A stretch of DNA of 64,000 nt from NCBI RefSeq assembly GCF_013167455.1, contig NZ_CP038328.1; one strand, 5' to 3'. The position numbers are program-made. Position 1 is the stretch's first letter, and each line of letters starts with the position of its first letter. The DNA is from Escherichia coli O157:H7 (GTDB lineage: Bacteria > Pseudomonadota > Gammaproteobacteria > Enterobacterales > Enterobacteriaceae). This document shows, piece after piece, positions 1 through 3,000 of the stretch.

Positions 1-3000
1 GTCTTTATTATAAACTTCGGCTGCATGTGCAGCACCTGCGCCGAGCAGGGCAGGAATTAAAAGTGCCAGTACTTTGCTTTTCATTGAATAAATCCTTTAG
101 TTATTTTATTTGCCTTTTATCCCCATTTCGGGGAGTGAAAACATCCTAAAGGAGAAGTTCAGTTAGCCGATAAATATCATTTGTTACGCCTTAAGTAAAA
201 CCTTAATCAAATAATTCCTCTGAAATGATAATAAGTCTGGTGAATGTATCGAAGATAATACATACAAAATAAAAATTATACTTTTAATTTTCTATACGTT
301 ATTCTGCGCGGGTTATATGCCTTTATTGTCACAGATTTTATTTTCTGTTGGGCCATTGCATTGCCACTGATTTTCCAACATATAAAAAGACAAGCCCGAA
401 CAGTCGTCCGGGCTTTTTTTTAGAATTGGATAATCCTTATCCAGAGCATTTAATCGGTGTTGCTTTTTTCCGCTTTTCCGGCCATTTGTGCCAGGAAGTC
501 ATAGCGTTTTTGCAAATCAGCTGCAGCATCTTTCCATAACTGTTCTGCCACTTCTGGCTGCTGCGAATTCAGACGACGGAAACGTTGCTCGTGAAGTAAC
601 GTTTCTTCCAGTGCTTCTGACGGCGGGCGTGAATCCAGCGCCAGCGGCAGTTTGCCTTCATCGGCACGACGCGGATCGAAGCGATATAGCGGCCAGAAGC
701 CGGTAGCTGTGAGTTGGCGCATCTGGTCATGGCTGAGTGCCAGATCGTAACCATGCTCTTCACACGGGCTATAAGCAATGATCAGCGATGGTCCCGGATA
801 CGCTTCCGCTTCCTGAATCGCTTTCACCGTCTGGTTCAGCTGCGCGCCGAGAGAAATCTGAGCCACATAAACATGACCGTACATCATCATACTGACGCCA
901 AGATCTTTACGCGCTTTACGTTTGCCGTGCTCGCCAAATTTAGTTACTGCACCCAGCGGTGTCGCTTTCGACGCCTGACCACCGGTGTTGGAATAGCATT
1001 GCGTATCCAGCACCAGAATGTTGACGTTTTCCGTCAAACTCAATACATGATCCAGACCGCCAAAGCCGATATCGTAAGCCCAGCCGTCGCCACCAATCAG
1101 CCAGATTGATTTTTCCACCAGTGCATCTGCGTCACGCAGCAGTTCATGTGCTTCGGCAACATCGTTGAGTTGCTGGCGTAAAGCTGCAACCTGTTCACGA
1201 CGAACCTCTGGCGTGGCGTCTGATTTCAACGCCGTCAGTAATTCCGCCGGGATTTTATCGGCAAATTGATCCAGCAGACGCAGCACGCGGACACGGTGTT
1301 GATCGACCGTCAGGCGGAAACCAAGGCCAAATTCGGCATTATCTTCAAATAGAGAGTTCGCCCATGCCGGCCCACGACCGTTGGCATCGGTGGTATACGG
1401 TGTAGAGGGCAGGTTACCGCCATAAATTGAAGAACAGCCGGTGGCGTTAGCGATCAACATCCGGTCGCCATAGAGCTGAGTCAGCAATTTAATATACGGC
1501 GTCTCGCCACAACCGGAGCAAGCACCGGAATATTCAAACAGCGGTGTAATCAGCTGCGATGTGCGAATATCAATACGTTCCAGTTTGCTACGGTCGATTT
1601 CTGGCAGGTTGAGGAAGAAATCGTAATTGATTTTCTCTTCTTCGACATGTTCCAGGCGCGACATCATATTGATGGCTTTAATCTCTGGATTCTGACGGTC
1701 TTTCGCCGGGCAAACTTCGACGCACAGGTTACAACCGGTGCAATCTTCCGGAGCCACCTGCAAGACATATTTCTGCCCGCGCATATCACGCGATTTCACA
1801 TCCAGCGAATGCAGGCTGGCAGGGGCGTTTTCCATCGCTTCAGGCGGTACCACTTTTGCGCGAATAGCTGAGTGTGGGCAAGCGGCGACGCAGTGGTTAC
1901 ATTGGGTACAGAGTTCCTCTTTCCAGATGGGGATCTCTTCGGCGATATTGCGTTTTTCCCAGCGAGTGGTGCCCATCGGCCAGGTGCCGTCTGGCGGCAG
2001 CGCCGAAACGGGGAGGGCATCACCAAGCCCGGCGAGCATCGCAGCGGTTACGGTTTTCACGAAAGCAGGGGCGGCATCGGAAACCACTGGCGGTCGATTG
2101 GCGCTGTGCGGATTTACCGGTTGCAACGGAACTTCTTCTACGGATTCACGCGCCAGCGCCAGAGCCTGCCAGTTGCGTTCCACCAGATCCTGACCTTTGC
2201 TACTGTAACTTTTGGCAATCGCACCCTGCAATTCTGCGAGGGCGCTATCGCCAGGCAGAATTTGTGTCAGATGGAAAAAAGCCATCTGCATGACGGTATT
2301 AATACGGGCCGCCAGGCCACATTCGCGGGCGATTTTCGCCGCGTTAATCACATAGAAGCGCGCTTTTTTCTGATTTAGCACGGCCTGAACTTCCTGCGGC
2401 AAGCGCGACCACACTTCATCTGCGCTGTACGGCGTGTTGAGCAGGAAAATGCCGCCAGGTTTTAAACGCTCAGCCATCTGATATTTATCGATAAACTGCA
2501 ACTGGTGGCAGCCAACAAAATCAGCCTGGGAAATGAGATAAGCGGAACGAATCGGCTGTTCGCTCACGCGAAGGTGAGAAACCGTCAGGCCGCCCGCCTT
2601 TTTGGAGTCGTAAACAAAATAGCCCTGTGCGTACCACGGCGTGGAATTACCGATAATCTTGATATTGTTTTTGGTCGCGGAAACGCTGCCATCACTACCA
2701 AGGCCATAAAACAAGGCTTCCAGTTTCGCCGAGTTTGGCAGGGTGTTTTCCGGCAACGGCAGTGACAGATTGGTCACATCATCGTAAATACCAACCGTAA
2801 AGCGCGCTTTCGGTTTAGCCGCGTTGAGCTCGGCAAATACCGCCAGTACACAGTCCGGGCCAAATTCTTTGGATGAAAGACCATAGCGCCCACCAATGAC
2901 ACGGGGCAGAGTTTCGCGCTCGCCATTATTAAAGGCTTCTGCCAGTGCGGTCATTACATCCAGATAGAGCGGTTCTGCCTGGGCACCGGGTTCTTTGGTT

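Follow-up and report, generated by a model that had tools for sequence, protein, structure and literature searches.

The small RNA gene micC between ompN and ydbK/nifJ in an Escherichia coli O157:H7 chromosome

The stretch of Escherichia coli O157:H7 DNA analysed here, 64,000 nucleotides long and referred to as the window, almost certainly carries on its plus strand, at positions 312-421, micC, whose product is a small RNA acting in trans, about 109 nt in length, which ends in a terminator common to the convergent ydbK/nifJ and whose 5' end pairs with the ompC leader. This copy of micC is already known and ordinary: it lies in its usual context and is effectively equal to the K-12 reference. 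Beyond correct annotation the finding matters little, and it draws attention to a genuine RNA gene missed by automated annotation. As had been pointed out at the outset, an ORF track cannot show such a gene; the RefSeq/PGAP annotations of 12 sampled genomes hold no feature at this place, and among the annotations compared micC is listed only in the curated K-12 record. With this gene, the window can also be placed at the ompN-micC-ydbK region of an O157-like E. coli chromosome, in agreement with the initial annotation; of ompN, no more than the first 84 bases are inside. The biology of MicC is relevant to porin balance and antibiotic permeability and, according to a 2026 preprint describing OmpC-independent effects of MicC in ExPEC (bioRxiv 10.64898/2026.07.27.741068), to the fitness of ExPEC.

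Identity and position of micC

A scan against all Rfam families finds RF00121 (MicC) at window positions 309-429 of the plus strand with 125.3 bits (E = 2e-19), the gathering score of this family being 90 bits. The match is full length, covering model positions 1-123 of 123 without truncation; it was the MicC covariance model that the initial annotation had proposed as a check, and the outcome is positive. The curated gene of K-12 MG1655 is b4427 (NC_000913.3 1437121-1437231), flanked by ompN (b1377, minus strand) and ydbK (b1378, minus strand). Since K-12 micC aligns base for base to 312-421, the start coordinate of 312 that had been claimed is exact. The claimed end, 420, leaves out the final T of the terminator tail (421) and yields the length of 109 nt given in the literature; counting the whole T run, the gene comprises 110 nt. 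The presence of micC at this position is far beyond chance.

The window and K-12 share the locus, the strand arrangement, the start, nt 1-102 of MicC, the terminator, and the complementarity to ompC. Within the gene, the sole difference from b4427 is a terminator tail of 8 T in the window versus 9 T in K-12, so that micC, apart from one T fewer, is identical to its K-12 counterpart and had rightly been described as intact. Across the 260 bases compared, the only other difference is a T in the window for a G in K-12 at position 291 (-21).

Annotations and translation also bear out that micC is divergent from ompN and located between ompN and ydbK. The start codon of ompN is at window position 84 on the minus strand, 227 bases from the start of micC. 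On the other side of micC, the ORF called ydbK in K-12 and nifJ by RefSeq has 1174 codons, and 1170 of the 1174 residues are those of K-12 YdbK. Its stop codon (450-452) is 28 bases away from the last T of micC, the two genes being convergent. Co-regulation of nifJ with ompN by SoxS has reportedly been observed.

Of 5426 complete E. coli genomes, 5412 contain the micC region (window 1-1500), and several, among which are an O157 strain and cattle isolates, match it at 100% identity. Many E. coli lineages carry the 110-nt micC sequence with 100% identity, and 3708 of the 5426 genomes have it at an identity of at least 99%; the exact allele is found in O157:H7, in APEC O78, and in isolates from humans, dogs, cats, and food. 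Over the whole 64 kb, strain 2017C-4109 is at least 99.9% identical in collinear blocks, the exception being a repeat region around 10.1-11.4 kb.

Table 1. Coordinates of micC, its parts and neighbours, and of other features, counted from the first base of the window
Feature	Position	Strand	Basis or remark
ompN 5' end, first 28 codons	1-84	-	Translation; RefSeq annotation of a 100%-identical strain and of K-12
micC promoter region	128-311	+	Equals a 184-nt K-12 fragment
Candidate -10 hexamer TATTCT	300-305	+	Read from the sequence
micC	312-421	+	Alignment to the curated K-12 gene
5' target-pairing region (MicC nt 1-22)	312-333	+	Duplex calculations
Internal stem-loop (stem 347-352 with 374-379)	347-379	+	Rfam consensus structure
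Rho-independent terminator (stem 389-401 with 406-417)	389-421	+	Rfam structure line, fold, cross-species pairing
micC hairpin read in reverse, then GTCTTTTTAT	392-415	-	Terminator scan
ydbK/nifJ, pyruvate:ferredoxin (flavodoxin) oxidoreductase	450-3974	-	ORF list, annotations, K-12 identity
Islet ORF, 141 aa	28470-28895	+	Partly overlapping ORFs
Islet ORF, 122 aa	28870-29238	+	Partly overlapping ORFs
Islet ORF, 145 aa	29219-29656	+	Partly overlapping ORFs
Islet ORF, 136 aa	29748-30158	+	Partly overlapping ORFs
RydC small RNA	34483-34546	-	Rfam RF00505, 92.5 bits (gathering score 48)
"sok" match	35106-35257	-	Rfam RF01794, 111.5 bits

Promoter, terminator, and pairing with ompC

The 184-nt fragment to which the region upstream of micC corresponds drove a micC-lacZ fusion in K-12 MC4100 (PMC5745476), and its primers SD1 and SD2 can be recognised at positions 128-147 and 294-311 of the window. 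The hexamer TATTCT, at -12 to -7 with respect to the start at 312, is a candidate -10 element; a consensus promoter scan called no sigma-70 site on the plus strand at its threshold. A sigma-E promoter for micC was considered and dropped, as no sigma-E core motif exists in the intergenic region according to PMC5745476. The same study reports that sigma-E and H-NS act negatively on micC, probably in an indirect way.

The structure line of RF00121 consists of a small 5' hairpin within the seed, an internal stem, and a terminator stem. In the window, the terminator hairpin is GC-rich and contains an A-C mismatch (399/408), which is the same in K-12. The run of 8 T occupies positions 414-421, and its first four residues (414-417) belong, in the drawn structure, to the base of the stem on its 3' side. 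A terminator hairpin with a long U tail constitutes the 3' module that is bound by Hfq in Hfq-dependent small RNAs, and micC possesses such a Rho-independent terminator (389-417, 8 T). When micC is folded as a single sequence, its stability compared to shuffles is not significant (z = -1.75), and in its middle part the structure of minimum free energy is not that of the Rfam consensus.

On the minus strand, the terminator scan reports a terminator-like site at the same hairpin, 34 nt past the stop of nifJ. Because this hairpin scores as an intrinsic terminator in that direction as well, it is read as bidirectional and probably terminates ydbK/nifJ too, in which case the two convergent genes would share it. 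The scan did not call the hairpin on the plus strand, where its rules leave a 7-bp stem with a 10-nt loop, because of the A-C mismatch at 399/408, which on the minus strand is a permitted G-T pair.

Nucleotides 1-16 of MicC (GUUAUAUGCCUUUAUU) form 16 contiguous Watson-Crick pairs with positions -30 to -15 of the K-12 ompC leader, a site directly upstream of the GAGG at -13 and thereby of the ribosome-binding site. MicC nt 17-21 pair further upstream in the leader across an 11-nt bulge of the mRNA, and a duplex calculation gives -26.5 kcal/mol for MicC nt 1-22 with ompC. An exact complement of 16 nt between sequences of 110 and 180 nt is expected by chance only about 5e-6 times. Pairing was judged on this block of exact complementarity and on the 5' 22-40 nt; a full-length MicC:ompC duplex (103 nt, -61.1 kcal/mol) was dropped, as it is matched by 2 of 300 shuffles, and it is uninformative because intramolecular structure is ignored in its calculation.

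Among 5370 E. coli genomes with a match to the ompC leader (-81 to +30), 5364 show an identity of 99% or more. The O157:H7 strain PV15-279 shows 100% matches to both the ompC leader and the micC of the window, and since it carries both sequences, the RNA and its target coexist unchanged in this lineage.

Passages of PMC5745476 that cite Chen et al. (2004) describe MicC as a 109-nt Hfq-associated small RNA which forms a conserved 22-bp duplex near the start of ompC and thereby inhibits 30S binding; Hfq binding and dependence on Hfq are reported for the MicC of K-12 (PMC5745476). Following this description, micC would be transcribed away from ompN and end at the terminator common to the convergent ydbK/nifJ. 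The single-stranded 5' end of MicC would then pair with the leader of the ompC mRNA, just upstream of the ribosome-binding site, and this pairing would block binding of the 30S ribosome and lower the synthesis of the porin OmpC, with Hfq acting as chaperone as in the literature. The role of MicC as an Hfq-dependent regulator of ompC in this strain is suggested by those passages together with the complementarity found here, and transcription of micC, binding of Hfq, and repression by MicC are expected in this strain from the literature or from the sequence.

An analogous layout is encountered in MicF, an Hfq-associated, porin-repressing small RNA which is divergent from another porin gene and pairs near the ribosome-binding site (PMC5745476). 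However, MicF is divergent from ompC and represses ompF, it belongs to a different family with a different target and locus, and it is encoded outside the window.

Conservation and alternative readings of the locus

A collection containing one genome per species was searched with a pattern of 22 nt from the 5' end of micC (19 fixed bases and N at 3 positions). Twelve of the 13 loci retrieved are enterobacterial and come from Escherichia, Salmonella, Citrobacter, Pseudocitrobacter, and Enterobacteriaceae UBA5654. The other one, from a member of the Lactobacillaceae (L008), was rejected as a chance match to the 22-nt pattern, having neither a terminator, nor a porin or nifJ neighbour, nor an Rfam match. 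Ten of the 12 homologous loci have a divergent ompN-like porin gene upstream, and 11 have a convergent nifJ downstream. Nine homologs reach the gathering score of RF00121 (101-125 bits); in the other three (64-79 bits), the middle is shortened or replaced, whereas the 5' 20 nt and the terminator are kept. These below-threshold, syntenic homologs belong to two Pseudocitrobacter species and to UBA5654 (L006 8527-8640, L011 3508-3621, and L016 453-565), and routine Rfam annotation with its gathering score of 90 bits would miss them.

In Salmonella, the 5' 22 nt and the terminator of MicC are identical to those of the window and the gene is likewise convergent with nifJ, whereas the middle diverges. 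The MicC homologs of S. enterica subsp. arizonae and diarizonae score 122.8-124.9 bits against RF00121, and no ompN homolog was found adjoining these two loci. A further target of the 5' end of MicC in Salmonella is ompD, at codons 23-26 of the coding region and by way of RNase E (PMC3333887).

An alignment of 13 sequences shows no variation in the terminator or in the 5' 20 nt, although for the 5' end this is partly a consequence of the search pattern; the middle of micC is least conserved, with indels of 1, 2, and 8 columns. Such an invariant 5' end next to an indel-bearing middle fits the pattern of an RNA rather than that of a coding sequence. When the Rfam structure is laid over the 13 sequences, 96.6% of the cells are paired, compared to 38-53% when the partners are slid. 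In this small sample of 13 sequences, two-sided, compensatory changes occur at four base pairs. Three of these are among the 6 pairs of the internal stem, in which 92.9% of the cells are paired; in the terminator stem 96.8% of the cells are paired across species, and the 5' hairpin is uninformative for covariation because it is invariant. Within these 13 sequences, MicC therefore has a conserved structure with covariation support.

Nothing contradicts the reading of the locus as micC. The ompN gene, divergent partner of the unchanged micC, is probably a pseudogene in this lineage, which is a difference from the K-12 locus. This view comes from strain 2017C-4109, which is 100% identical over window 1-1500 and in which ompN (L001 1971-3084, outside the window) has a deletion of 20 bp (K-12 ompN nt 350-369) that shifts the frame. 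With micC kept while ompN decayed, and with a terminator placed head-to-head with nifJ, one might speculate, at a low probability, that the output of MicC is coupled to nifJ transcription, by convergent-transcription interference or antisense read-through, or that targets different from ompC account for the retention of MicC, a possibility suggested by the ExPEC preprint mentioned above.

Still less probable, and in our view very unlikely, is that micC, although present, has become silent or impaired in this lineage, owing to the G to T change at -21 or to the 8-T tail, and persists as a relic beside the decayed ompN. One substitution in the promoter spacer, one T fewer than in K-12, and the frameshift of ompN would accord with such a relic, yet position -21 is outside the candidate -10 hexamer, and a tail of 8 U is within the range of 7-9 found in the MicC of other species. 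Furthermore, the occurrence of the exact 110-nt allele at 100% identity in unrelated lineages argues for purifying selection on micC.

That the conserved element is only the terminator of ydbK/nifJ together with its 3' flank, and not an independent RNA gene, is hardly conceivable. The minus-strand score of the 392-415 hairpin and its distance to the nifJ stop are what such an element would display, but besides the hairpin it is the 5' 20 nt that are most conserved, about 60 nt beyond it on the side far from nifJ, and these overlap the perfect complementarity to ompC. In addition, the Rfam match is full length and on the plus strand, and K-12 micC is a curated gene that has been studied experimentally (PMC5745476). 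A small protein encoded by the mechanical ORF at 348-539 (plus strand, 63 aa, TTG start), which does figure in the ORF list, can be dismissed with the same firmness, as this ORF runs antisense into the coding region of nifJ and as the indels fall in the middle of micC while the 5' end, which is not part of the ORF, is invariant.

Further features of the window

Several other differences from K-12 are apparent in the window. A block of about 19 kb (feaR-feaB-tynA-paaZ-paaA..K-paaXY-ynbG), located between ydbL and ydbA in K-12, is absent, the corresponding place being window positions 9393-9800 approximately. The ydbA-like autotransporter is represented by two CDSs in the annotation of the closest strain, without the IS2/IS30 insertions of K-12. 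Inside this ydbA-like beta-strand-repeat gene lies the only region differing from 2017C-4109 (10100-11450), a shift in repeat number or alignment of about 10 bases net.

An islet of low GC content (28400-30200; GC 0.32-0.37 versus about 0.51 in the flanks) is situated between hrpA and ydcF, where K-12 has only a gap of 271 bp and no islet. It is found at a coverage of at least 80% in 585 of 5426 E. coli genomes and is always annotated as "hypothetical protein"; its four ORFs (Table 1) gave no match to Pfam or PADLOC.

A small RNA gene, that of RydC, is located just downstream of cybB, as in K-12, and is absent from the RefSeq annotation of the closest strain. The "sok" match lies on the hokB/mokB strand, in the 5' leader, and sokB of K-12 is annotated on the opposite strand; within this type I toxin-antitoxin locus (hokB/sokB), what RF01794 detects seems to be the side of the hok mRNA. 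Finally, in the annotation of a near-identical strain rimL has an internal stop and ydcO is frameshifted, and both genes are possible pseudogenes in this lineage, at window positions of about 41978-42514 for rimL and 46202-47375 for ydcO as transferred from that strain (L004 minus 10).
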